Source of the DNA: an uncultured Candidatus Saccharibacteria bacterium
GTDB taxonomy: Bacteria > Patescibacteriota > Minisyncoccia > Minisyncoccales > CAZJYT01
DNA length: 64,000 nucleotides
Direction of reading: 5' to 3'
Assembly (NCBI GenBank): GCA_964552375.1
Contig: CAZKFX010000001.1
Location: 3,929 to 67,928, forward strand
The notes under the pieces are model-generated. The model was not told where the DNA came from and did no database searches. It saw nothing but the letters and a program-made list of their open reading frames with translations. Of the stretch, positions 2,637 to 50,675 are shown one piece after another (the first letter of the stretch is position 1; the number at the start of each line of letters is the position of its first letter). A program made the translations under genes and the position numbers.

Positions 2637-3053
2637 ATGCCCTTTATTGTTCCTAAGTTTATTGAAAAAGAAGCAAAAATTGTAGGTCCTTTGACTTTCA
2701 GACAATTTGGCTTTTTCCTTTTTGCGGGTGTCATTGCTTTTTTCTTGTATTTTACAATTGGCAAAAAAAATCTTCCTTTGTTTTTGATAATTATAGGACC
2801 AGTAATAGCTATAGCAATGATTTTTGCATTTGGAAAGGTAGAAGGGAGAGATTTTCCAGTTTTTTTAAAAAATTTTTTGTCCCACCAACAATCTCCAAAA
2901 ATGTTTTATTTTCAAAAAAAGACAATAGCTCCTGAAATTTTGCATTTTAAAATTAAAAAAGGAGAAGAAGAAAAAAAAGAAATGGAGCCTGCAAAAGGTT
3001 TTACAAAAACAAGTTTGCAAAAAATGTTTGTTGAAATTGAAACCAAAAAATAG
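2637..3053 (+). CDS. VirB3/PrgI-like small two-TM protein (T4SS inner-membrane component candidate)
   Basis: N-terminal ...KIVGPLTFRQFGFFLFAGVIAFFLYF.. plus a second TM helix; sits immediately upstream of the VirB4 homologue, as in Gram-positive type-IV systems. Confidence 0.45.
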   Translation: MPFIVPKFIEKEAKIVGPLTFRQFGFFLFAGVIAFFLYFTIGKKNLPLFLIIIGPVIAIAMIFAFGKVEGRDFPVFLKNFLSHQQSPKMFYFQKKTIAPEILHFKIKKGEEEKKEMEPAKGFTKTSLQKMFVEIETKK

Positions 3054-3059
3054 CATTTT

Positions 3060-3689
3060 ATGGCAAAAGCTCCCAGTCAGCAATTTTTAGAGATAAAACA
3101 AATTAGAGATGGAGTGATGATATTGAAAGACGGAAGTTTAAGAAAGATTTTGGCTGTTTCTTCTTTAAATTTGGCAGTGAAGTCTAAAGAAGAACAAGAA
3201 GCCATTTTTTATCAATTTCAAAATTTCTTAAATTCTTTAGATTTTTTCTGTCAAATAATTGTTCAATCTCAAAGATTAAATATTACAGGATATCTAGAAG
3301 AATTAGAAAAATTAGAACAAAAACAACCAAATGAACTTTTAAAATTCCAAACTAGAAATTATCGCCAGTTTATCCAAAAATTAGTAGCTACAGGAACGAT
3401 TATGAATAAAAATTTCTTTTTGGTAGTTCCCTTTTATATGTCAGAACTTAAAGAAGTAATTCCCTCAAAAAAGGCAGGCAAAGGAGAGATGGCAGAACTT
3501 AAATTTCAATTGGCAAAAAATCAACTTGAACAAAGAGCTGAATTTTTAATATTAGGTTTAAGGAGGTGTGGTTTAAATGCAGCTCCCCTAAATAGTGAGC
3601 AATTAATTGAGCTTTTGTGGAATTTTTATCATCCAAAAGAAGCAGAAATGGGATATTATCCTTCTATTCCTTCTGAAATAATAAAATAA
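3060..3689 (+). CDS. VirB4/TraC-family protein, N-terminal domain (separate ORF)
   Basis: IRDGVMILKDGSLRKILAVSSLNLAVKSKEEQEAIFYQFQNFLNSL resembles the N-terminal region of PrgJ/TcpF/VirB4 proteins; ends TAA at 3687-3689, 1 nt before the ATG of the ATPase ORF. Confidence 0.5.
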   Translation: MAKAPSQQFLEIKQIRDGVMILKDGSLRKILAVSSLNLAVKSKEEQEAIFYQFQNFLNSLDFFCQIIVQSQRLNITGYLEELEKLEQKQPNELLKFQTRNYRQFIQKLVATGTIMNKNFFLVVPFYMSELKEVIPSKKAGKGEMAELKFQLAKNQLEQRAEFLILGLRRCGLNAAPLNSEQLIELLWNFYHPKEAEMGYYPSIPSEIIK

Positions 3690-3690
3690 A

Positions 3691-5538
3691 ATGAAGCTTC
3701 AAATTGCTAAAATTTTAAATAAATTTTTAAAAAGGAAAAAGCAAGCAAAAAAGTTAACTCTTCCTGTAGGAAAAGAGGAAGAATTAAAATTAGCAGATTT
3801 TATTGCCCCTCCCTCAGTTAAAATATTCCCAAATTATATCCAATTAGGAGAAAGATTAGCTAAAAGTTATTTTGTCTTTTCTTATCCTCGTTATTTAACT
3901 GCTGCCTGGGTCGCTCCTGTTATAAATTTAGATGTTCCTCTTTTAATGTCTTTTTTTATTCATCCTACCGATACAGGCTATATTTTAAAGAAACTCCAAA
4001 AAAGACTTACTGAAGTTCAGGCAGAAATTGCAGAAAGAGAAGAAAAAGGATTAATTAGAGATCCAACTTTGGAGACAGCTTATAAAGACATTGAGGAATT
4101 AAGAGATAAACTTCAGACAGGGCAAGAGAGAATGTTTAGATTTGGTCTTTATTTGACTGCTTTTGGAGATAGTGAAAGAGAATTAAAAGAGGTTGAAACT
4201 ACTTTAAGATCAATCTTGGAAGCAAAATTAGTCTACATTAAACCTTGTCTTTATCAGCAAAAACAAGGACTTCACTCTTGTTTTCCTTACGGTTTAGATC
4301 AATTAATGACTCATCATTTAATGAATACTTCTACCCTTTCAAGTATTTTTCCTTTTGTCTCTTTTGATTTAAGTGCAAATGAAGGAATTCTCTATGGGAT
4401 TAATCAACACAACAAATCTTTGGTTTTATTCAATAGATTTAGTTTAGAAAATGCTAATATGGTTGTCTTTGCAAAATCAGGTTCTGGTAAAAGTTATGCT
4501 GTCAAATTAGAAACCTTAAGACTGTTAATGACTGGTGTAGAAGTAATTATTATTGATCCTGAAAATGAATATAAACCCTTAGCAGAAGCTGTTGGAGGTT
4601 CTTTTATTAATATTTCTCTAAGTTCTCCCCATCATATTAATCCTTTTGATTTGCCAGAAAAATTAAGGCCAGATGAAAACCCAGAAGATGTTTTGCGTTC
4701 AAATATTATTAATCTGGTAGGTTTGATGCGTTTAATGTTAGGTGGATTAACCCCTGAAGAAGATGCAATAATGGATAGGGCTTTAACTGAGACTTATGCT
4801 GCAAAAGATATTACTCCAGAAACCAATCCTTCAACCTGGAAAGATAATACTCCCTTAATGGAGGATTTAGAAAGTGTTTTAGAAGGAATGGAGGGGGCAG
4901 AATCAATTTTGAAAAGATTGAGAAAATTCACCAAAGGAACTTATGCTCAATTTTTCAACCAACCTACTAATGTATCTTTGGATAAACCATTAATAGTCTT
5001 TGGAATTAGAGATTTAGAAGATGAATTAAGACCAATGGCAATGTTTATAATTATGAGATACATTTGGAATAAAGTAAGATCAGAACTTAAAAAAAGAATT
5101 TTGGTAGTAGATGAAGCCTGGTGGTTAATGCAATACGAAGACTCAGCTTCATTTTTGTTTGGATTGTGTAAAAGAGGAAGAAAATATGGACTGGGTGTCA
5201 CCACCATTACCCAAGATGTTAATGATTTTATGAAATCTACTTATGGCCAACCAATTATTACTAACTCAGCCTTGCAATTTTTAATGAAACAATCTCCAGC
5301 AACTATTGATGTAGTTCAAAAAGTTTTCAATCTAACTGAAGAAGAAAAGCATTTGCTTTTGGGAGCAGCAGTTGGAGAAGGTCTCTTTTTTGCAGGACCA
5401 AAACATGTTTTTTTAAGAGTAGAGGCTTCCTATGCAGAACATCAAATTATTACAACTTCTCCTGAAGAACTCAAAAAAATTAGAGAGAGAAAAGAAAAAA
5501 TGGAAAAATTAAAAAAAGAAGGAGAGAGAGAAATTTAA
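3691..5538 (+). CDS. virB4: VirB4/TraC/TrbE-family conjugal-transfer-type ATPase (ATPase domain)
   Basis: Walker A FAKSGSGKSYAVK; IIDPENEY; Walker B VVDEAWW; overall VirB4 layout. Confidence 0.8.
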   Translation: MKLQIAKILNKFLKRKKQAKKLTLPVGKEEELKLADFIAPPSVKIFPNYIQLGERLAKSYFVFSYPRYLTAAWVAPVINLDVPLLMSFFIHPTDTGYILKKLQKRLTEVQAEIAEREEKGLIRDPTLETAYKDIEELRDKLQTGQERMFRFGLYLTAFGDSERELKEVETTLRSILEAKLVYIKPCLYQQKQGLHSCFPYGLDQLMTHHLMNTSTLSSIFPFVSFDLSANEGILYGINQHNKSLVLFNRFSLENANMVVFAKSGSGKSYAVKLETLRLLMTGVEVIIIDPENEYKPLAEAVGGSFINISLSSPHHINPFDLPEKLRPDENPEDVLRSNIINLVGLMRLMLGGLTPEEDAIMDRALTETYAAKDITPETNPSTWKDNTPLMEDLESVLEGMEGAESILKRLRKFTKGTYAQFFNQPTNVSLDKPLIVFGIRDLEDELRPMAMFIIMRYIWNKVRSELKKRILVVDEAWWLMQYEDSASFLFGLCKRGRKYGLGVTTITQDVNDFMKSTYGQPIITNSALQFLMKQSPATIDVVQKVFNLTEEEKHLLLGAAVGEGLFFAGPKHVFLRVEASYAEHQIITTSPEELKKIRERKEKMEKLKKEGEREI

Positions 5539-6251
5539 TTTGTTTTGAAAATCAATTTTTGTTGAAAAATAGAAAAAAGAGTGCTTGATAACCAATACAA
5601 AGAAAGGGCGCAAGGCAGTTTTAGTAAAACTAAAAGAGTAAAAAGAGGAAAAAGAATAATCATTTCTTTTTGAAAAATATCTAAAATTTTACTCATTTGA
5701 TCTTTCTTTTGTTGAGAAAAAGAAAAAGGCTGCATTTTAAATTGAATAAACTGAAAAGCAGTTGCCAAAAAAGCTAAAAAGAAAGCTGGCCAATAATATT
5801 GTATTGTCTGAGGGTCTTTTTGAATAAAAAATGAAAGTGAAAGATTTATTTTTCCTAAAAATAATGGCTCAAAATCAAAAGATTGAACTCCTTCCCAAAA
5901 CAATCTAAACAAAGCTAAAAAAATAGGAATTTGCAAAATAGAAAAAAGACAACCTGAAAAAGGATTAAATTTTTCTTTTTTGTAAAGCTCTAAAATAGCT
6001 TTCATTTGTTTTTCTTTGTCTTCTTTGTGTTTTTCTTGAATTTCTTTTACTTTAGATTGAATTTGAGATAAACTCTTTTGAGATTTTATTGCCTTAAAAG
6101 AAAGAGGGGAAAGAATTAATTTAATTAAAATTGTAAAAATTAAAAGAGCTATTCCGAAATCTTTAATGGGGAGAATTTGATAAAGAAAAATTAAGGCCTT
6201 TAAAAGAGGAAAATAGAAAAAATCAATGATGGGATTGTGTAAAAAATTCAT
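5535..6251 (-). CDS. yidC: Membrane protein insertase YidC (short form)
   Basis: KEKFNPFSGCLFSILQIPIFLALF matches the YidC NP..GCLP.L.Q.PIF.AL signature; downstream of yidD-rnpA-rpmH. Confidence 0.85.
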   Translation of the reverse strand: MNFLHNPIIDFFYFPLLKALIFLYQILPIKDFGIALLIFTILIKLILSPLSFKAIKSQKSLSQIQSKVKEIQEKHKEDKEKQMKAILELYKKEKFNPFSGCLFSILQIPIFLALFRLFWEGVQSFDFEPLFLGKINLSLSFFIQKDPQTIQYYWPAFFLAFLATAFQFIQFKMQPFSFSQQKKDQMSKILDIFQKEMIILFPLFTLLVLLKLPCALSLYWLSSTLFSIFQQKLIFKTN

Positions 6252-6467: not shown

Positions 6468-6796
6468 TTTGTTTTTTGAAAGAGTTTTTGAATTGTCTTT
6501 TCAATCTCTCTAAATTTTAATTTTTCAATCCCAGGTAAAGCTATAAAAATTCCTTTCAGGCCTGGTTTTAATAAATCAAGTTTTAATCTTACTATCTCTG
6601 CCATTTGTCTTTTTAGTCTATTCCTTATTGTCGCTTTTTTTGAAACTTTTTTTGAAATTAAAAAAGCAAATTGACAAATACTATTTTTTGTTTCCAAAAA
6701 CCTAAAAAATAAAAAATCTTCTTTGGCCTTTTTTCCTTCTTTAAATATTCTCTCAAAATCTTTCCTCTTTGAGAGCCGGTTTTTTTTAGCCAACAT
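6452..6796 (-). CDS. rnpA: RNase P protein component
   Basis: N-terminal KKNRLSKRKDFERIFKEGKK; sits between rpmH and yidD. Confidence 0.8.
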   Translation of the reverse strand: MLAKKNRLSKRKDFERIFKEGKKAKEDFLFFRFLETKNSICQFAFLISKKVSKKATIRNRLKRQMAEIVRLKLDLLKPGLKGIFIALPGIEKLKFREIEKTIQKLFQKTKCFKN

Positions 6797-6802
6797 TAAA
6801 AT

Positions 6803-6937
6803 TTATACTGTAAGTCTCCATCTTCCCTTTGCTCTCCTCCTAGCCAAAATTCTCCTTCCAGCCTTTGTTTTCATTCTCTTTCTAAAACCATGGGTCCTCT
6901 TTCTCTTTTTTACTTTTGGACGATATGTGATTGACAT
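6803..6937 (-). CDS. rpmH: 50S ribosomal protein L34 (ORF-track start trimmed to the internal Met)
   Basis: [44 protein letters not shown] matches the L34 consensus; ATG at 6937-6935 (minus strand). Confidence 0.85.
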
Positions 6938-7080: not shown

Positions 7081-8427
7081 ATGAATGAAAAAGAGCTCTG
7101 GGAAGCAGTTTTGGCCCAAATTCAATTGCAAATTTCCCAGGCCAATTTTACTACTTGGTTCAAAGGGACAAGAATTATTGCTAAAAAAGAAAATGAAGTT
7201 TTAATTTCTACTCCTAACACCTTTGTTAAAGAATGGTTAGAACAAAAATATAAACATCTCATTTTCAAAATCATAAGTGGTTTTGAGCCTAAAATAAAAG
7301 AAATTAAATTTTTAATTGGAAAACAAAATTTAAAACCCAGCTTTTGGCAAGAAAGAGAAGAACAAAAACAACAATTAGAATTTGAACAACTAAAGGTAGA
7401 TAGTGAAACAAATCTTAATCCAAGATACACTTTTAAAAACTTTGTAGTAGGTAGCTTTAATGAATTAGCTTTTGCAGCAAGTCAGGCGGTAATAAAAAAT
7501 CCAGGAGTTCTTTACAATCCATTATTCATTTATGGAGGCGTAGGATTAGGAAAAACTCATCTTTTAGAAGCAACAGGTAATGAAATTGTTAAATTGTATC
7601 CTAAAAAGAAGGTAAAATATGTTCCTGCTGAAAGATTCATTAGAGAAGTTGTTGAGGGAATTAAAAATCAAAAAATAGAAGATTTCAAATTAAAATATCA
7701 AAAAGTTGATGTCTTAATTATTGATGATGTTCAATTTTTAGCAGGGAAAGAAAAAACCCAAGAAGAATTTTTCCATTTGTTCAATAGTTTGTACCAAAAA
7801 AACAAACAAATTATTCTTTCCTCTGATAGACCTCCTAAAATAATTCCTTCTTTGACAGAAAGATTAAGATCAAGATTTGAAGGAGGAATGATTGGAGATA
7901 TTTCTTTACCAGATTTTGAAACAAGGGTAGCTATTTTAAAAGTGAAAGCTCAAGAAAAAAATGTAGAGTTTTCAGAAGAAGTTTACAATTTTATTGCTCA
8001 ATCCTTTAAAAGAAATATTAGAGATTTAGAAGGAGCTTTAAACAGATTAATTGTTTATTATAAATTAAACAACAAAGTTCCTGATTTATCTATTACAAAA
8101 AAACTTTTAAAGAAAGTAATTTTGGGAGCTAATCAATGGACTACCCCTAACAAAATTATCTCTACTGTTGCCGAGTTTTATGACCTAACCCAAAAAGATT
8201 TGTTAAGCTCTTCTAGAAAAAAAGAAATCACAAAACCTCGCCAAATCGCAATGTATCTTTTAAAAACCGAATTGAAGAGTTCTTATTTATCTATTGCTAG
8301 GAAATTGGGAGGAAAAGATCATTCAACAGTAATTTATGCTTGTGAAAAAATTGCAAAACAATTGGAAAAAGATAAAAAATTAGAAGAGGAAATTGAGTTG
8401 ATAAAACAAAGAATATATAGTGGATAA
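7081..8427 (+). CDS. dnaA: Chromosomal replication initiator DnaA
   Basis: AAA+ GGVGLGKTHLL; DnaA domain IV; divergent from rpmH-rnpA. Confidence 0.95.
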   Translation: MNEKELWEAVLAQIQLQISQANFTTWFKGTRIIAKKENEVLISTPNTFVKEWLEQKYKHLIFKIISGFEPKIKEIKFLIGKQNLKPSFWQEREEQKQQLEFEQLKVDSETNLNPRYTFKNFVVGSFNELAFAASQAVIKNPGVLYNPLFIYGGVGLGKTHLLEATGNEIVKLYPKKKVKYVPAERFIREVVEGIKNQKIEDFKLKYQKVDVLIIDDVQFLAGKEKTQEEFFHLFNSLYQKNKQIILSSDRPPKIIPSLTERLRSRFEGGMIGDISLPDFETRVAILKVKAQEKNVEFSEEVYNFIAQSFKRNIRDLEGALNRLIVYYKLNNKVPDLSITKKLLKKVILGANQWTTPNKIISTVAEFYDLTQKDLLSSSRKKEITKPRQIAMYLLKTELKSSYLSIARKLGGKDHSTVIYACEKIAKQLEKDKKLEEEIELIKQRIYSG

Positions 8428-23192: not shown

Positions 23193-23747
23193 ATGAGAAA
23201 AATTTTTCTCTTTCTCTTTATTTTGAAAATTTTATTTTTTCCTTTAATTTGTCAGGGAAAATTGAGGTATTATGAGGCATGTGAGAGTGTCTCAAGTGGA
23301 GTTTGTATGACTCCTACTTATACCGTTTGTTATGATGGTTTGGTGCCATGCGGAAAAGATGTTTGGTATGCTCAAGGATCTCATCCAGATTGTCCTACTT
23401 CCTCGCTTCCAATGAGTGTTACTACTACTCATTGTCAGCTTTGTCATTTTTTTATTATGTTTAATGGCGCAGTTGATTTTCTCATTTGGGAAATTGTTTT
23501 ACCTTTGGCGGTTTTAATGCTAATTGTAGGAGGAATTTTATATATTTTAGCAATTTTAGAGTTTGTTCCTGGAGGACCCCAGACTGTAAATCAGGCAAAA
23601 CAAGTAATTAGTGCTGTTTTCATTGGTTTATTTATTGTCTTTTCTGCCTGGTTTTTGGTCAATTTATTTTTCACCTTAATTGGAGTAGCTGATTGGACAG
23701 GATTAAAAGAAGGCTGGTTTAAAATTGATTGTCCAGTAGAACTATGA
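23193..23747 (+). CDS. Secreted Cys-rich domain with C-terminal 2-TM 'GG..V..AK..I' hairpin module (paralogue of 47592 and 48642 proteins)
   Basis: Signal-like N-terminus; about 12 Cys; LMLIVGGILYILAILEFVPGGPQTVNQAKQVISAVFIGLFIVF. Confidence 0.4.
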   Translation: MRKIFLFLFILKILFFPLICQGKLRYYEACESVSSGVCMTPTYTVCYDGLVPCGKDVWYAQGSHPDCPTSSLPMSVTTTHCQLCHFFIMFNGAVDFLIWEIVLPLAVLMLIVGGILYILAILEFVPGGPQTVNQAKQVISAVFIGLFIVFSAWFLVNLFFTLIGVADWTGLKEGWFKIDCPVEL

Positions 23748-44863: not shown

Positions 44864-45706
44864 TTAAGTTTTATTTTTTTGTTTTCTTTTTCTATAAAGA
44901 ACTAAAATCACAAACAAAAGTACAAAAATTAATATTCCCAAAATTATTGCTCCAATTTTCAAAAAAACCATTATTTTTGGTTTTCTTTCTTTTGGCGAAA
45001 GACAATCTAAATCTTCATTTGCAAGACAATCTGGATCACAAATTCCATCTATTGCTCTATCACAATAGTTATCTTTTCCTCCAGAAGGACAATCTTGAGG
45101 GCAATTTTTATAATTTTCTCCTTTTTCACATTTTCCATTAGAGCAAACAGCTACTTTTTGGCAGTCTGGATCTTCTTTCTTAATACAATCTGGATCACAT
45201 ATTCCGTCTTTTACTTTATCACAATATCCATCAGCGCCCCCAGAAGGACAGTCTTTTGGACAGTTTTTATAATTTTCACCCAGGACACATTTTCCGTCTC
45301 CGCAAACTCCTTCTTTTAATTCCAATTGCATTAATTTTGTCACCTCAATTTCTCTGTTGTCAGGCAAAATACAGACAGCACATTTTGGAGAAAGCAAATG
45401 AGCACATTTTTTTCTATCTTTAATGGTTTTCATTTCATAACCCTTTTTTGTACAAAAACTATATTCTTTTCCACACTCTCCCCATAAGAACTTCCAGGCA
45501 ACACAACTTTTTTTATTGGGAAAAACACAAATACCATATTGATTTCCTTTTTCGTCGGTTTTAATTTGATAATCATACCCCAATTTATAACAATAAAGAG
45601 CAGCTGGATTTTTTAGAGCTAAAACTTTAGAGAAAATGAAAATTCCCACAAAAAGGAATAAAAAAATGGAAAAATTTTTTATTTTTTTCATATTCATAAT
45701 ATTCAT
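44864..45706 (-). CDS. Cys-rich tandem-repeat surface protein with C-terminal TM anchor
   Basis: Signal peptide; two about 48-aa repeats CxxGKCxxGENYKNCPxDCPSGGxDxYCDxxxDGICDPDCxxxEDxDC; C-terminal hydrophobic helix + KRKQKNKT. Confidence 0.5.
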   Translation of the reverse strand: MNIMNMKKIKNFSIFLFLFVGIFIFSKVLALKNPAALYCYKLGYDYQIKTDEKGNQYGICVFPNKKSCVAWKFLWGECGKEYSFCTKKGYEMKTIKDRKKCAHLLSPKCAVCILPDNREIEVTKLMQLELKEGVCGDGKCVLGENYKNCPKDCPSGGADGYCDKVKDGICDPDCIKKEDPDCQKVAVCSNGKCEKGENYKNCPQDCPSGGKDNYCDRAIDGICDPDCLANEDLDCLSPKERKPKIMVFLKIGAIILGILIFVLLFVILVLYRKRKQKNKT

Positions 45707-45726: not shown

Positions 45727-47595
45727 TTAAGGCGGAGGAATTATTCCTTCTCCATAATCTCCTGACATATGAGTACCCAAAAGACAAGTGTCAAAATCAA
45801 AACTTTCATATCCATCAAAGCAAGGATCACCAGGAATTCCTCCCCAGCTATTTTTTAAAATCCAATATCTTTTAACATTATTATACCCTACCAATACCAT
45901 TGCATGATTGGCACCTGGCAGACATTTGTAAATATCACACCCATCATCATCCAAACTTCCTGTGGTTCCCCCTCCAACACCAACCTTTACATACAAGGGC
46001 CCATATTTAATTAAACCATATTGAAGTTCCCCTCTGTTGTTTAAAATTTTTGGGGTGACACTATCAGTATTGGTTATTTTCCATAGCTCAATTGGACTAG
46101 CATCATCACAAGTTGCTGGACAAGGAGAATCAGTTTGCAAATAACCATAGCAATCTTCTGTTGGCACACCATTTGTCTTAATAAAATTGAAAGCACAATT
46201 TCCACCATTACAATCTCCAATAGGACAACAATCTGAAATTAAATACTGTTCAGACAAATCAGGCGTTAAAGAGCTGTCTCCTTTTTCTATTTTATATTTT
46301 GCTTCCATACTTCCTATAGTTGCAAAAGCCCAACAAGCTCCACAAGCTCCTTGATTTTTTACTGGGGTCATCCAATTTTCTCCATTTACATTTCTCCAGT
46401 CCCAAAATTGAGGAGGAATGTGAATAGTGATAGTGTCTGTAGCTACTACTCCTGAGGCGTCAGTTACCTTTAATGTAATAATATGGTCTATTACTGTTGA
46501 AGTAGCAACTCCAGTTAAATCATTTTTAACAAAACTACTAGAAGCGCCAATAACTCCATCTATATTAGAAGTCCATTCTATAGTATAAGGAAGAGTACCT
46601 CCTGTAATTAAGGCTTGAAAATTTATTGGGTCTCCTTGGGCAAAAGCAGTATCATCAGGAGGAGAGGAAATAGTCGCAGTTAAAAAAGGAGGATTAACCT
46701 TTACCTGAGCAGAAGCAACAGCTGTTTTTCCACAATTGTCAGTTACGCGCAAAAGAGGATGATAAGTGCCAGGAATATTGTAAATATAAGTGGTGATTCC
46801 AGAAATGAAGCTTTGCCAGTCAAAAATACCATCTCCTTCAAAATCCCATTCATATTTCACTATTTGACCTTGTCCTGGGGGTGGATCAAAAGAATAGGTG
46901 CTTCCATCAAAATAAACTGTTTCACCTGCTACTACAACAACACTTAGAGCAGTTGGAGAAGGATTTTTTCCTACTCTTGGTTTGGGGACAGGAGGAAGGT
47001 CTTGAATGCAATCTGTTCCTGTCCAACAATAACCTGAATCACAGGCATAACAATTTTCTCCTGCTCCACAACAAACACCTCCAGTGATATGAGAATTGGA
47101 AGGAGAGAAAGTTAGACATCCTGGTATGGCACTACAGGTTGGAGTGCAACCAGAGGAGGTTATTTTAAAATTAGCCACATTTTCTGTTTCGGTGGCAAAT
47201 CCCAAAATATCTTTTGCTTTAATATCAATATAATAATTACCAACAGGAGCACCACTTGAGTCCCAACTATTTCCATATTTTCCATCATTAGCTAAATCAT
47301 CGTTATGAGATCCATCATCATAAAGCTGAACAGTTGCTATATTTGTTTCGTCTGGATTTTGTAAAAAAGCAACAACTGAACTGACTCCAGAGATATCTGT
47401 TACTTTAGCATTAATAATAAAAGTAGCTCCTTGGTCTGCGCTTGAAGGTGAAACACTTACATCAGAAACTGTTGGATAAGGTTGATTTGCTATTTCCAAA
47501 GAAGGTTTTTGAGAAAAAGAAATTTTTATACAAAAAATTCCAAAAATGATTAAAATTAAAAATAACAAAGGAAAAAATTTACTTTTTTTCATCAT
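45727..47595 (-). CDS. Secreted multidomain papain-like (C1) cysteine peptidase with N-terminal beta-sandwich, Cys-rich and PKD-like domains
   Basis: NQGACGACWAFAT (active-site Cys), NHAMVLVGY (His), ILKNSWG (Asn); PKD-like YEWDFEGDG; signal peptide. Confidence 0.7.
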   Translation of the reverse strand: MMKKSKFFPLLFLILIIFGIFCIKISFSQKPSLEIANQPYPTVSDVSVSPSSADQGATFIINAKVTDISGVSSVVAFLQNPDETNIATVQLYDDGSHNDDLANDGKYGNSWDSSGAPVGNYYIDIKAKDILGFATETENVANFKITSSGCTPTCSAIPGCLTFSPSNSHITGGVCCGAGENCYACDSGYCWTGTDCIQDLPPVPKPRVGKNPSPTALSVVVVAGETVYFDGSTYSFDPPPGQGQIVKYEWDFEGDGIFDWQSFISGITTYIYNIPGTYHPLLRVTDNCGKTAVASAQVKVNPPFLTATISSPPDDTAFAQGDPINFQALITGGTLPYTIEWTSNIDGVIGASSSFVKNDLTGVATSTVIDHIITLKVTDASGVVATDTITIHIPPQFWDWRNVNGENWMTPVKNQGACGACWAFATIGSMEAKYKIEKGDSSLTPDLSEQYLISDCCPIGDCNGGNCAFNFIKTNGVPTEDCYGYLQTDSPCPATCDDASPIELWKITNTDSVTPKILNNRGELQYGLIKYGPLYVKVGVGGGTTGSLDDDGCDIYKCLPGANHAMVLVGYNNVKRYWILKNSWGGIPGDPCFDGYESFDFDTCLLGTHMSGDYGEGIIPPP

Positions 47596-48503
47596 ATATT
47601 ATCTAATTTACTACAATTTCCCCAATTATCACAAGCTTTAATATCTACATAATAGGGGCCTTCAGGAAAAGAAGCAGAATTCCAGACATTTCCAAAAATA
47701 CTGTCAGAACTTGAGACATCACTGTGGAGTCCATCGTCAAACAATTCTATTATTTCAAGAACAGTATTGTCAGGTCTCTGCAAAAGAGCATAAGCAGACG
47801 CAATAGGGTTGGCATCGGTTATTTTGACTCTAATTTCAAACAATGTTCCTTGAGGTGCAGAAATAGGAGTAATGTGAGTATTTGTAATATTAGGAGGAGT
47901 AGTGTCTATAAAACCAAAACCGAGAGCTACAAAACATGCAGGACATCCTACTGCTGACCCACAGTCTACATGGGTTTCTCCACAATCTTTTACACCATCT
48001 GAACAATGGTTACAATTTTGGCAATACAAAGAAGAAGGATTGCTGACATCTTCAAAAATCCAGACACCCCCATTACAATAAAGCTGAAGGGATAAATCAC
48101 AATCTCCAGGAGTACAAGTTAATCCAGCAGTAGTCATTGTGCCAGTAGAAGGAGCGACACCAAACAATTTACCACTTATGTTAATTACTACCTTTATAGA
48201 AGAAACAATAAAAATTCCTATTGTAGCCACCAGTATTAATTCTTTTGCTTTTTCAACTCTTTCTGGATTTCCACCAGACATTAAAAGAAAAAAAGCAGCA
48301 CCAATTAAAAGAAAAGTTCCAACAATTACTCCTACCCAAAACAAAAAATTAGTAAAAGTAGAGACCAATTTTTGCCAAATAGGATAAGCACTTGGCCTTT
48401 TTATTACTATAGAAAAGGCTGAAAGAAAAAAGGGCAAAAATAGTAAAAATAACAAAAAATAAAGAAAAAATCTTTTTGAGAAGGTTTTAAAAATGGAAAG
48501 CAT
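47592..48503 (-). CDS. Membrane protein: N-terminal TM + 2-TM 'GG..V..AK..I' module, C-terminal beta-sandwich domain homologous to the N-terminal domain of the 45727 protease
   Basis: FLLIGAAFFLLMSGGNPERVEKAKELILVATIGIFIV; the C-terminal ISAPQGTLFEIRVKITD...LFDDGLHSD...GNVWNS...YYVDIKACD aligns with the protease's N-terminal domain. Confidence 0.45.
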   Translation of the reverse strand: MLSIFKTFSKRFFLYFLLFLLFLPFFLSAFSIVIKRPSAYPIWQKLVSTFTNFLFWVGVIVGTFLLIGAAFFLLMSGGNPERVEKAKELILVATIGIFIVSSIKVVINISGKLFGVAPSTGTMTTAGLTCTPGDCDLSLQLYCNGGVWIFEDVSNPSSLYCQNCNHCSDGVKDCGETHVDCGSAVGCPACFVALGFGFIDTTPPNITNTHITPISAPQGTLFEIRVKITDANPIASAYALLQRPDNTVLEIIELFDDGLHSDVSSSDSIFGNVWNSASFPEGPYYVDIKACDNWGNCSKLDNI

Positions 48504-48641: not shown

Positions 48642-49172
48642 ATGAAAAAAGGAATTGCTATTTTAGGAACAATTTGTCTTTTGGGAGTTTTAATTTTGCC
48701 AGCAATAAGTGAAGCTGCAAGGACAACGACAAACTGTTGTCAGATTAGAAGGACATTTTCTTTTAATGGAAAGACTTGGTTGTCTGGAAGATGTTATGGA
48801 GAAATAGGAATAGAATATGGTACGACAGCTGTTACTACTACTGCTACAGGATGTGAAACACCAGGAGGAGTTGTACTATGTGAAGCCGCACCAGGACTTG
48901 GAGTGGAGCCAGGTAAAAATGTAGAACAAAGACCTGACTGGGGTGCTGGATGTATGCTAAATAGTGTCTATCGGATTTCAGACTTTATTTTCATGATTTT
49001 GATTGTAGTGGCAGTAATTATTGGTTTGGCAGGAGGTTATAATATTTTGACTGCTGGAGGTGATGCTGAAAAAGTGAACAAAGGAAGAGACTTGATATTG
49101 TATGCTATTATTGGAATGGTAGTAGCTTTCTTTGCAAGAGCTATTCCTTCAATTGTATCTCTGTTGATATAA
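48642..49172 (+). CDS. Secreted Cys/Thr-rich domain with C-terminal 2-TM 'GG..V..AK..I' hairpin module (pilin-like candidate)
   Basis: Signal peptide ..AISEAA; IVVAVIIGLAGGYNILTAGGDAEKVNKGRDLILYAIIGMVVAFF. Confidence 0.4.
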   Translation: MKKGIAILGTICLLGVLILPAISEAARTTTNCCQIRRTFSFNGKTWLSGRCYGEIGIEYGTTAVTTTATGCETPGGVVLCEAAPGLGVEPGKNVEQRPDWGAGCMLNSVYRISDFIFMILIVVAVIIGLAGGYNILTAGGDAEKVNKGRDLILYAIIGMVVAFFARAIPSIVSLLI

Positions 49173-49214: not shown

Positions 49215-50675
49215 TTGATGTTACAAAAGGGAAAAAAAGGTTTTTTTGAATTAAATAAAAATTTGATAATTTTTTTCTTTTTGGGAACATTAGCAGGTTC
49301 CCTTTTTTCTTTTATTTTAATTTCTAAAGCAGAATTTAAAGGGAAAATTGACTATTTTGGAAAAATTGAAATTTTAACTGAAGTTTCACAGTCTATCAAA
49401 TTAGACAATAAAAAATTTAATGAAAAGATTGAGACAAAAACAAAAAAAATTTTTAGTGGCGAAACTGCTTTTTTGGGTGCTCATTATATTAAAAACGAAA
49501 GTGTTCTTCCTAAAAGAATAAAAATAATTACAAATGATAATCCAGAAAATTTAAATTTTTTACCAGTTGAAATGGTTTGGCAGGCAGTTCAAATTACTAC
49601 TGGAAAAACCTACAAAAGAAACCCAAGTGTTTTAAAAGATAGCAGAGGAAATTTGTGGTTATTTTTCTCTCAAGATACATATTTTGGTCAGGAAGGCAAA
49701 GGATGTGATGAAGAGGGCGTCAATTGTGAAAATCATCAATATGAGGGTTATTACATAATTTCTCAAGATCAAGGAATTTCTTTTTCTCAACCTTTCAAAT
49801 TTCCAGAGATTGAAAATTTTCATCCAAAAATAATTTCTCCAATTGAAGATGAAAAGGGAAGAATTTGGGTTTTTCTTTCAGATAGTAAAGGAGAAAAAGG
49901 AATTTATTATTTTATTATCAACAATGGAAAATTCAGTGAGCCAAAAAAATTGGAAATTGTCAAAAATAATGTAGATTTTGTCTCTGTGGCAAAGAAAGAA
50001 AATTTAATTTTTGTAATTTATGAAGATAAAGAAGGTTCAAAAATAGTTTGGACAAAAGATTTTGGTGAAAGCTGGGAAGGGCCTTTTTTAATAGACAAAA
50101 GAGCTTCAAGGGCAAGAGGAATTTTTGCAAAAGATGGAAAATTAAAAATTGTTTGGCAAAACAAAGAAACAAAAAAGGGAATTTATTTGACAGATTGCAA
50201 TTTTGAGAACTCTTTTTTAAATTGTTCCTCCTCTTTGGTTTATCTGGTAGAAGGGTTTGCCACAGAAGATAAAGAGCCCTTTTTATTGCAAGATTCTTTT
50301 TCTAATTTTTGGTTATTTTGGACAGTAAAAGAAGGAAAAGAAAAAGGTAAAATTACTCAATGGATAAATTTTGCTACCTCTTCAGATTTAAAAAAATTTT
50401 CTTTACCAAAAATTTTAATGAAAAGAGAAAATAGATGGAATTTTTCTCCTTTTGCCATAGAAAATAAAAATCAAATCTATCTCTTTTTTGCCTCAGAAAA
50501 CGATAGATATTCCTCTGAAGGAAGGGTAAATTCTAATATTTGGATGGCAAAATTGGGAAAAGAGATTGAAATTGAAATTTTACCAAAAGAGAAAATTGGT
50601 TTTGATGTCGCTTTTATTTTTAGAGAAAATTTAGCACAAAATGATTATTTAACAATTGTTGAAATTAAAAAATAA
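49215..50675 (+). CDS. Membrane-anchored BNR/Asp-box repeat protein (sialidase-like beta-propeller candidate)
   Basis: Asp-boxes SQDQGISF and TKDFGESW; recurring W.F(F/L)S / W.FW strands; N-terminal TM helix. Confidence 0.55.
   Translation: MMLQKGKKGFFELNKNLIIFFFLGTLAGSLFSFILISKAEFKGKIDYFGKIEILTEVSQSIKLDNKKFNEKIETKTKKIFSGETAFLGAHYIKNESVLPKRIKIITNDNPENLNFLPVEMVWQAVQITTGKTYKRNPSVLKDSRGNLWLFFSQDTYFGQEGKGCDEEGVNCENHQYEGYYIISQDQGISFSQPFKFPEIENFHPKIISPIEDEKGRIWVFLSDSKGEKGIYYFIINNGKFSEPKKLEIVKNNVDFVSVAKKENLIFVIYEDKEGSKIVWTKDFGESWEGPFLIDKRASRARGIFAKDGKLKIVWQNKETKKGIYLTDCNFENSFLNCSSSLVYLVEGFATEDKEPFLLQDSFSNFWLFWTVKEGKEKGKITQWINFATSSDLKKFSLPKILMKRENRWNFSPFAIENKNQIYLFFASENDRYSSEGRVNSNIWMAKLGKEIEIEILPKEKIGFDVAFIFRENLAQNDYLTIVEIKK

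Follow-up and report, generated by a model that had tools for sequence, protein, structure and literature searches.

Introduction

Attachment to host cells is the presumed way of life of Patescibacteria (the candidate phyla radiation, CPR), whose genomes contain abundant, unexplained paralogues of VirB2-like pilins together with a type IV secretion system (T4SS) that has apparently been co-opted for a role other than conjugation. Here we describe three genes within a 64,000-nucleotide (nt) stretch of DNA from an uncultured Candidatus Saccharibacteria bacterium (contig CAZKFX010000001.1; hereafter the window), in which a putative pilin paralogue of this kind, the anchor, is followed by a secreted papain-like protease, the cargo, and then by a DUF333 protein. 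The anchor ends in an immunoglobulin (Ig)-like domain, here termed X, a second copy of which stands near the N-terminus of the cargo. The parts are of known kinds (C1 peptidase, PKD, VirB2-like pilin, choice-of-anchor X and DUF333), and the best explanation for their arrangement, as judged from sequence, is that these three genes of a Patescibacteria-type bacterium constitute a conserved cassette for surface proteins. A gene pair with a matching domain suggests how enzymes might be mounted on pili or at the cell surface.

An arrangement of this sort is known from the cohesin-dockerin systems of cellulosomes, which likewise combine a surface anchor bearing a β-sandwich module, enzymes bearing a matching terminal module, and varied cargo served by one connector. 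The present locus differs in that both partners carry the same Ig-like domain, to which the cargo adds a short N-terminal peptide, and in that a pilin-like anchor would be paired with the product of one adjacent cargo gene. Scanning of the anchor and the protease against Pfam and NCBIfam revealed no cohesin or dockerin family. An earlier reading of this locus, made from the sequence without database searches (the original prediction), had proposed a cohesin-like pairing; on the evidence of these scans the comparison appears to hold for function only, with one and the same fold on both sides. Enzymes associated with pili are a second functional parallel.

With the VirB2/TrbC pilins and the pilin arrays of Patescibacteria, the locus shares a signal peptide, a hydrophobic two-helix hairpin with a match to PF18895 just under its cut-off, the presence of several paralogues, and VirB4 and PrgI genes near dnaA. 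Known VirB2-type pilins are small, however, whereas the anchor has a C-terminal Ig-like extension of 190 amino acids (aa) and a dedicated cargo gene. Neither pilin fusions nor a protease partner is mentioned in a survey of T4SS in Patescibacteria (bioRxiv 10.1101/2025.01.22.634366).

Donor-strand systems (chaperone-usher pili, type V pili and TasA fibres) offer a further parallel, as they too combine a pilus-type protein, whose Ig-like domain has a shortened last strand, with a partner that bears a conserved amphipathic strand at its mature N-terminus. They differ from the present case in that the anchor subtype of X lacks the half strand even when it is internal to a protein, and in that the resemblance of the cargo peptide to such a strand is statistically weak. 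Chaperone and usher genes are absent from the cassette and from its 20 relatives.

In staphopain-staphostatin operons, the gene for a secreted C1 cysteine protease is accompanied downstream by that for a dedicated inhibitor. The cassette resembles these operons in having a papain-fold protease gene and then a small co-conserved gene, here encoding the DUF333 protein (10/10 loci), but its protease lacks an I29 propeptide and carries four N-terminal accessory domains. Finally, the X domain is akin to proteins matching the NCBIfam model NF041940 ("choice-of-anchor X"), which share the core LYDDGxHxDxxxxDGxYGNxW and carry the domain on surface proteins with many kinds of anchor. The definition of NF041940 includes no anchor or cargo subtypes, terminal positions or gene pairing, and it names a domain to which no function is assigned. 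In the literature, we found no paper on Patescibacteria pilin-Ig fusions, on anchor and cargo subtypes of X, on the S[FL]E[IV] motif, or on the cassette.

Anchor and cargo share a homologous terminal domain

The three genes lie on the minus strand at 47592-48503 (303 aa, the anchor), 45727-47595 (622 aa, the cargo) and 44864-45706 (280 aa, the DUF333 protein). Both of the first two open reading frames (ORFs) are as originally described, and direct inspection of the sequence located their 4-nt overlap at ATGA (...GAT AAT ATA TGA / ATG ATG AAA...), which suggests translational coupling of anchor and cargo. Their segments, with residues modelled by AlphaFold2 (AF2) and graded by its per-residue confidence score (pLDDT), are as follows.

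47592-48503, minus strand: anchor gene, 303 aa, with a signal/transmembrane (TM) helix, a VirB2-like pilin helical hairpin, a Cys-rich linker and a C-terminal X (ORF call, Pfam and AF2)
48165-48383, minus strand: T4SS_pilin (VirB2/TrbC-like) two-helix hairpin, anchor aa 41-113 (Pfam at aa 47-108; AF2)
47904-48158, minus strand: Cys-rich linker of the anchor, aa 116-200 (low AF2 confidence, pLDDT 40-57)
47595-47903, minus strand: anchor-type X, aa 201-303, with a CxxxxxC pair, a short last strand and the free C-terminus DNI (BLASTP, NF041940 and AF2)
45727-47595, minus strand: cargo gene, 622 aa, secreted multi-domain papain-like protease (ORF, Pfam, PDB alignments and AF2)
47512-47595, minus strand: cargo signal peptide, aa 1-28, predicted cleavage SFS/QK (AF2 helix 7-27; putative site)
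47488-47511, minus strand: N-terminal peptide QKPSLEIA, the predicted mature N-terminus, with the S-[FL]-E-[IV] motif conserved in cargos
47158-47484, minus strand: cargo-type X, aa 38-146, with a full-length G strand (NF041940, 31.2 bits; AF2; cargo clade)
46951-47157, minus strand: Cys-rich linker of the protease, aa 147-215 (AF2 pLDDT 32-48)
46690-46950, minus strand: PKD domain, aa 216-302, with YEWDFEGDG at aa 248-256 (Pfam PKD_4, E 1.5e-8; PKD, E 2.7e-8)
46414-46689, minus strand: second Ig-like domain, aa 303-394 (weak Pfam Ig_3/Big_7; AF2 strands with pLDDT 91-97)
45730-46413, minus strand: Peptidase_C1 catalytic domain, aa 395-622 (Pfam and PDB alignments)

The two X copies are homologous far beyond chance. 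They align without gaps over 100 aa with 40% identity and 64% positives (BLASTP, E 3e-23), and their Smith-Waterman score of 225 compares with 28.7 +/- 5.4 for shuffled sequences (n=2000, maximum 59; z=36). That the N-terminal domain of the protease recurs at the C-terminus of its neighbour, and that their alignment should stand above shuffled controls, had been proposed from the outset, although the domain proves to be about 105 aa in length and not about 90. Structure prediction is confident for both copies (pLDDT 96-98 in the anchor and 92-97 in the cargo). The anchor X, which ends ...ACDNWGNCSKLDNI-COOH, is modelled with a last strand of only four residues (297-300) and no A' strand; that of the cargo has a 13-residue G strand (134-146) and an A' strand.

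Pfam contains no family for X and returned only weak resemblances to Big_7, Big_13 and DUF4625. The NF041940 model, which has 37 positions and a cut-off of 25 bits, matches the protease at aa 90-127 with 31.2 bits and the anchor at aa 252-289 with a borderline 24.7 bits, and the matched core in both proteins is L[YF]DDGxHxDxxxxDGxYGNxW. Foldseek comparison of X with the PDB recovered generic Ig-like sandwiches only (accessory domains of xanthanase, Amuc_1438, PPAD, NPC2 and TapA), the weak matches including TapA/TasA chains (8aif, E 2e-3). Word-indexed homologue searches with X alignments gave no matches, whereas an exhaustive profile (hidden Markov model) search with X yielded 1677 cluster representatives at E<=1e-3, 384 of them at E<=1e-10. 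Giant proteins in which X is repeated in tandem, up to 24 times, are numerous among these, and the GTDB genomes in which X occurs belong to many bacterial and several archaeal phyla. Because X is widespread and often in tandem, its sharing between two surface proteins is ordinary by itself.

A conserved gene pair with exchangeable outer ends

Loci related to that of the window were gathered by scans of GTDB genomes and metagenomes and by contig look-ups, and any protein that terminates in an X domain was counted as an anchor. Two architectures recur among the profile matches, namely a pilin with a C-terminal X and a signal peptide followed by X and a C1 protease; these are adjacent on contigs, with a DUF333 gene coming next. 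For 20 of 21 distinct anchors with downstream DNA, the next gene encodes a signal peptide, an S-[FL]-E-[IV] motif and an X domain. The 20 paired loci are those of the window, L003-L006, L010, L011, L013, L018, L020, L024, L088, L089, L093, L115, L119, L122, L124, L146 and L173; the pair of the window is found again in the near-identical contig L002, and L003 is a relative with 82% identity. The gap between anchor and cargo genes ranges from -13 to 80 nt, apart from L013, in which a small intervening ORF widens it to 446 nt.

The ends that would form the interface are constant. All anchors end ...AC[DN]xxGxCxxx[ED][ND][IL], once with one extra residue, and S-[FL]-E-[IV] is invariant in the 20 cargos that follow an anchor, beginning 0-3 residues past the predicted cleavage site. 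Among 150 listed profile matches, all 10 occurrences of ACDxxGNCxxxENI are at the protein end, and 11 of 13 PSFE[IV]-type strings are right behind a signal peptide.

The outer ends vary. VirB2-like pilins serve as anchors in the window, L004-L006, L010, L013, L018, L020, L024 and L093. Four metagenome contigs (L119, L122, L124 and L146) have minor-pilin-like anchors of the type KGVSLLITFF..., which start ...KGVSLLITFFVM... and, on reading of the sequence, resemble a GspK-like minor type IV pilin or pseudopilin with no Glu+5. In L122, the gene before the anchor has a canonical G/SSLVELVVV pilin N-terminus, and from these anchors and this neighbour it appears that type IV pilus-like systems make use of the connector too. 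Single-TM anchors (KGQMFVV... or similar) occur in L011, L089 and L173, and the anchor of L115 is the end of a protein of more than 2100 aa. The cargo is a C1 protease in ten loci, an Ig/PKD repeat protein of 1279-1381 aa in L006 and L013, and a C25 gingipain-like protease with Tricorn-like propellers in L173 (P0108); the others are unclassified.

In a neighbour-joining tree, all anchor X domains fall into one clade, with the cargo X domains outside it, and anchors and cargos form congruent sub-groupings (the window with L003 and L010; L004 with L005 and L011; L006 with L018; L020 with L024). Identity between anchor X and cargo X within a locus is 26-63% (mean 45.7%), as compared with 41.1% between loci. 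These patterns indicate an old pair of X domains whose specialised subtypes appear to have been co-inherited while both outer ends were swapped, and this is what would be expected of interacting modules rather than of a neutral duplication. The original prediction had gone from the shared module directly to docking; that step is insufficient alone, given how common X is, but a specific functional pairing is supported by the 20/21 adjacency and the swapped ends.

The closest relatives of the cassette come from metagenome-assembled genomes (MAGs) that databases label as Saccharibacteria, Parcubacteria, Moraniibacteriota or "Patescibacteria group". The L011 contig (1-8452), from a MAG labelled Aenigmatarchaeota, carries the full cassette of anchor, C1 cargo and DUF333 gene, followed by a Peptidase_C25 gene, and its anchor has a single N-terminal helix of the KG-TVEVW type and not the VirB2-like hairpin. 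Its occurrence under an archaeal (DPANN) label would reflect either cross-domain transfer or mis-binning, and the flanking genes are uninformative in this regard.

Two features of individual loci may be added. L013 is the sole locus in which the pair is split by another ORF (6544-6828, 94 aa), which, from reading its sequence, we take to be similar to the four-helix-bundle proteins of 23S rRNA intervening sequences. The loci whose cargos read PSLEI (the window, L003 and L010) are also the only ones whose anchors end in xLDNI or xLENI; the Leu four residues from the anchor end (window anchor aa 298-303, cargo aa 31-35) goes with PSLEI, and elsewhere this position is A, V, E or R. The match may represent co-variation across the proposed interface, as seen within a single clade.

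A pilin-like anchor and a protease with an intact catalytic site

The 303-aa protein had been described as membrane-type, in agreement with its T4SS_pilin match just under the Pfam cut-off and with AF2 helices at residues 2-30, 41-75 and 80-113. The latter two form a hairpin (pLDDT 81-94) with the loop GGNPERV at aa 77-83, giving the signal peptide and two hydrophobic helices with a short loop that characterise VirB2-TrbC proteins, and orthologous anchors reach the PF18895 or PF04956 thresholds. The anchor is therefore best described more specifically, on present matches, as a putative VirB2-like T4SS pilin paralogue. In VirB2/TraA-type pilins, the hairpin puts a C-terminal extension outside the cell, and by analogy the extension of the anchor would face outward as well. 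The Cys-rich linker that precedes X has no family in a Pfam scan, and the same is true of the Cys-rich linker of the protease.

For the cargo, the small residues at positions -3 and -1 of the predicted cleavage site fit signal peptidase I in essentially all orthologues, and the signal peptide is probably cleaved before QKPS following export by the Sec pathway. In the AF2 monomer, aa 28-41 are without secondary structure, with pLDDT below 50 at 29-34. The Cys-rich segment (aa 147-215) that was noted ahead of a PKD-like YEWDFEGDG domain is found as such, and the domain itself scores above gathering cut-offs for both PKD_4 (aa 220-300; 35.0 bits against 27) and PKD (34.1 against 23.5). The second Ig-like domain recurs in cargo orthologues and in some anchors.

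A complete C1 peptidase, as originally claimed, is present at the C-terminus. PF00112 matches aa 395-590 with E 2.2e-35 (123.2 bits; cut-off 20.7), and 139 relatives in the PDB were detected at E<=1e-5, the best being cathepsin C (8e-24). In alignments with cathepsin C (1jqp) and ginger protease II (1cqd), the oxyanion Gln Q415 and the triad residues C421 (NQGACGACW; nt 46333-46335), H564 (NHAMVLVGY; nt 45904-45906) and N582 (KNSWG; nt 45850-45852) are all retained, and the catalytic site is intact. An I29-type inhibitory propeptide is typical of the papain family, if not universal. No Inhibitor_I29 match was found at E<=0.1 in a Pfam scan of the protease; where C1 enzymes typically have a propeptide, the AF2 model has an Ig-like domain immediately N-terminal to the catalytic domain.

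Proposed docking of cargo on anchor and its alternatives

We judge it on balance probable that anchor and cargo constitute a conserved tethering module, in which docking is understood in general terms. The anchor would present its C-terminus outward, as a Cys-rich stalk and an anchor-type X that ends at a free carboxyl end. The cargo, exported by Sec and starting with QKPSLEIA after cleavage, would continue with cargo-type X, spacer Ig and PKD domains and the papain-like protease without its propeptide. The cargo would bind the C-terminal X of the anchor non-covalently through an N-terminal module made up of peptide and X, and the protease, thereby held on a membrane-embedded or polymerised pilin, could cut proteins on the surface of host or prey cells or in the medium. 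In the relatives, the same connector would load other cargos onto other pilin-like anchors. What the sequences show directly are the domain architectures, the homology of the two X copies, the catalytic site, the gene order kept with exchanged ends, and the distinct, co-diverging anchor and cargo clades; cleavage of the signal peptide, outward topology, physical binding and its mode, a host-directed role of the protease and the function of the DUF333 protein are what we infer.

In its widest form, the proposal is that of a two-part connector (an anchor-type X at a pilin C-terminus; an S[FL]E[IV] strand plus cargo X) by which ultra-small symbiotic bacteria, and perhaps DPANN archaea, load enzymes and adhesins onto filaments of three or more unrelated types of pilin, possibly by split-Ig strand insertion, with the resulting enzyme-bearing pili attacking host surfaces. 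The pilin types in question resemble VirB2-like T4SS pilins, minor type IV pilins, and, for the single-TM KGQMFVV type and on reading of the sequence, proteins with archaeal-type pilin N-termini. Taken in its entirety, this picture is speculative and we consider it doubtful. The module nonetheless provides a testable idea for some of the pilin paralogues, which might display hydrolases or adhesins where cell and host meet, and a first candidate role for two subtypes of choice-of-anchor X and for some DUF333 proteins. Should the connector prove to be a compact pairing of peptide and domain, it could also be of interest for tethering proteins; if docking is false, what is left is a conserved operon of co-expressed surface proteins, which would still be useful for annotation.

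Several observations weigh against docking. The loci were collected by way of the X domain, which biases counts on the cargo side. One anchor (L092) has no motif-bearing neighbour, and the motif-bearing proteins of L022 and L174/P0087 have no adjacent anchor. The Pfam T4SS_pilin match of the window's own anchor (aa 47-108; E 3.4e-5, 24.3 bits) falls below the cut-off of 26.6. X is moreover generic and widespread enough that common ligand binding could explain both copies. This last point underlies the main rival explanation, by which the operon encodes two surface proteins that act independently, the pilin fusion and the protease, and X binds a single external ligand, such as a host-surface glycan or the S-layer, so that the pilus adheres and the protease is targeted to the same place. 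A shared ligand would account for the common fold, and it fits with the presence of X in hundreds of large surface proteins that are unrelated to one another and often carry it in arrays of up to 24, as expected of a module for binding or spacing, with a generic Ig-like sandwich akin to the accessory domains of glycosidases and glycopeptidases, and with identity that is slightly higher within loci than between them (45.7% vs 41.1% mean). It leaves unexplained, however, why X forms the very last residues of the anchor, why S[FL]E[IV] is invariant at the mature N-terminus of the cargo, why anchor-type and cargo-type X have long been separate subfamilies, and why the genes are adjacent in 20/21 loci, and we regard it as unlikely. 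Alternatively, the pair might be an evolutionary leftover, generated by partial tandem duplication or by fission of an X-X surface protein and devoid of functional coupling. Tandem X-X proteins are common, and the end of the anchor joined to the start of the mature cargo resembles a tandem junction. Yet the pair is old, with within-locus X identity of only 26-63% and separate clades, it is retained, with exchanged outer ends, in MAGs that bear the labels Saccharibacteria, Parcubacteria, Moraniibacteriota and Aenigmatarchaeota, and neither strict end positions nor an invariant motif is expected of a neutral remnant. This explanation is already disfavoured, and we hold it to be very improbable.

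If docking is accepted, the possibility arises that it takes the form of a split Ig domain, in which the (P)S[FL]E[IV] strand of the cargo completes the anchor X beside its truncated last strand. Such donor-strand docking, a subset of docking in general, would give a very stable link, with the C-terminus of the anchor meeting the N-terminus of the cargo much as the two domains of a tandem X-X protein meet at their junction. The anchor X ends at position 104 of the 110 in the profile, where cargo and tandem X domains continue A-[TS]-F-[TS]-[ILV], and the cargo sequence [PA]-S-[FL]-E-[IV] has the same spacing of small residue, Phe and aliphatic residue as the missing half strand. The peptide is within 0-3 residues of the predicted cleavage site in every cargo, and the PxPxP linker that follows it resembles the DTTPP linker of tandem X arrays. 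AF2 leaves the cargo peptide unpaired in the monomer and gives the anchor a four-residue last strand with no A'. Scored against a position-specific scoring matrix (PSSM) for the G strand (positions 105-109, from 112 non-paired X domains), ASFEI is significant (P=0.001), but PSFEI (P=0.08) and the PSLEI of the window (P=0.33) are not. Adding the first nine mature residues of the cargo to the anchor gained no more in the profile than did random or shuffled 9-mers, a comparison rendered uninformative by the little information in the last profile columns. The anchor X model is confident up to its final residue, and internal anchor-type X repeats of protein P0092 lack the same half strand and are directly followed by the next domain. 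The short strand would thus belong to the subtype itself and require no complementation, the fold being probably complete without it; taken as proof of a split domain, the short last strand is weakened by these repeats. The PSSM, extension and P0092 results do not establish strand insertion, a possible mode of docking that we advance hesitantly.

A covalent link was also considered, in the form of a Lys-Asn isopeptide bond between QK of the cargo and ENI of the anchor. It was dropped, as the Lys is not conserved (QE, QN, QS, SD and SP variants occur) and the EN of the anchor is conserved in all X domains.

Type IV secretion genes and further pilins in the window

The window has a G+C content of about 30% and is chromosome-like, with dnaA, yidC, gyrB, pheT, ftsA, gatB and tRNA genes. 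A scan for promoters and terminators gave no signal above shuffles. The genes of interest outside the cassette are these.

2637-5538, plus strand: monoderm-type T4SS core, comprising a PrgI/VirB3-like gene (2637-3053), a TraC-like N-terminal part (3060-3689) and a VirB4/TraG P-loop ATPase (3691-5538), by Pfam
48642-49172, plus strand: plain T4SS_pilin paralogue, 176 aa, divergent from the anchor gene (Pfam E 1.5e-7, 31.8 bits)
23193-23747, plus strand: T4SS_pilin paralogue, 184 aa (PF18895, E 2.4e-10)

Assembly machinery is represented in the core by matches to PrgI (E 1.7e-11) and the VirB4/TraG P-loop (E 4.7e-30), and the core could be a machine able to assemble VirB2-like pilins. It directly adjoins yidC (5535-6251, minus strand) and dnaA (regions 2637-5538 and 7081-8427 of the window). 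The ORFs beside it, of 707 aa (60-2183) and 129 aa (2245-2634), have no Pfam family. With the anchor, the window contains three PF18895 T4SS_pilin paralogues, of which the 176-aa protein is a candidate major pilin; in L020 and L024, a plain pilin gene is directly upstream of the anchor. The survey of Patescibacteria cited above describes an origin-proximal T4SS layout like that of the window and arrays of VirB2-like pilins; no PrgB or comparable adhesin was detected across its CPR dataset (bioRxiv 10.1101/2025.01.22.634366).

The 184-aa paralogue, flanked by ksgA-like and BadF/BcrA-type ATPase genes, is distant from the cassette and from the T4SS core. A 486-aa protein encoded downstream of the plain pilin gene (49215-50675, plus strand) has a weak BNR/sialidase-like propeller match (BNR_2, E 9e-6, below cut-off) and could be another surface hydrolase of the neighbourhood.

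The DUF333 protein and its Cys-rich repeats

The third gene of the cassette lies directly after the cargo:

44864-45706, minus strand: 280-aa protein comprising a signal peptide, DUF333, a pair of Cys-rich repeats (each about 50 aa) and, at its C-terminus, a TM helix followed by a basic tail

DUF333 (PF03891) is matched with E 7.4e-16 and 58.6 bits (cut-off 25). A DUF333 gene follows the cargo in 10/10 loci with a C1 protease cargo and does not follow non-C1 cargos with a readable downstream gene (L006, L013 and L115), which indicates that DUF333 goes with the protease and not with the anchor. By analogy with operons that pair a protease with its inhibitor, the protein may be an inhibitor, a self-protection factor or a maturation factor; a membrane-bound inhibitor or self-protection role is plausible because the protease lacks a propeptide. 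A sequence search of the PDB found no relative of the DUF333 protein and no similarity to staphostatin or chagasin, and the literature search found no function for DUF333.

The two tandem repeats of the protein read GxCGDGKCxxGENYKNCPxDCPSGGxDxYCDxxxDGICDPDC. The same type of repeat is found in proteins of about 270 aa encoded directly after X-containing proteins of about 540 aa in eight loci (L067, L071, L075, L079, L081, L082, L084 and L085), six of them labelled Woesearchaeota and two Methanosarcinales. The genes for these repeat proteins and for the X-containing proteins before them make up a second conserved pair with X.

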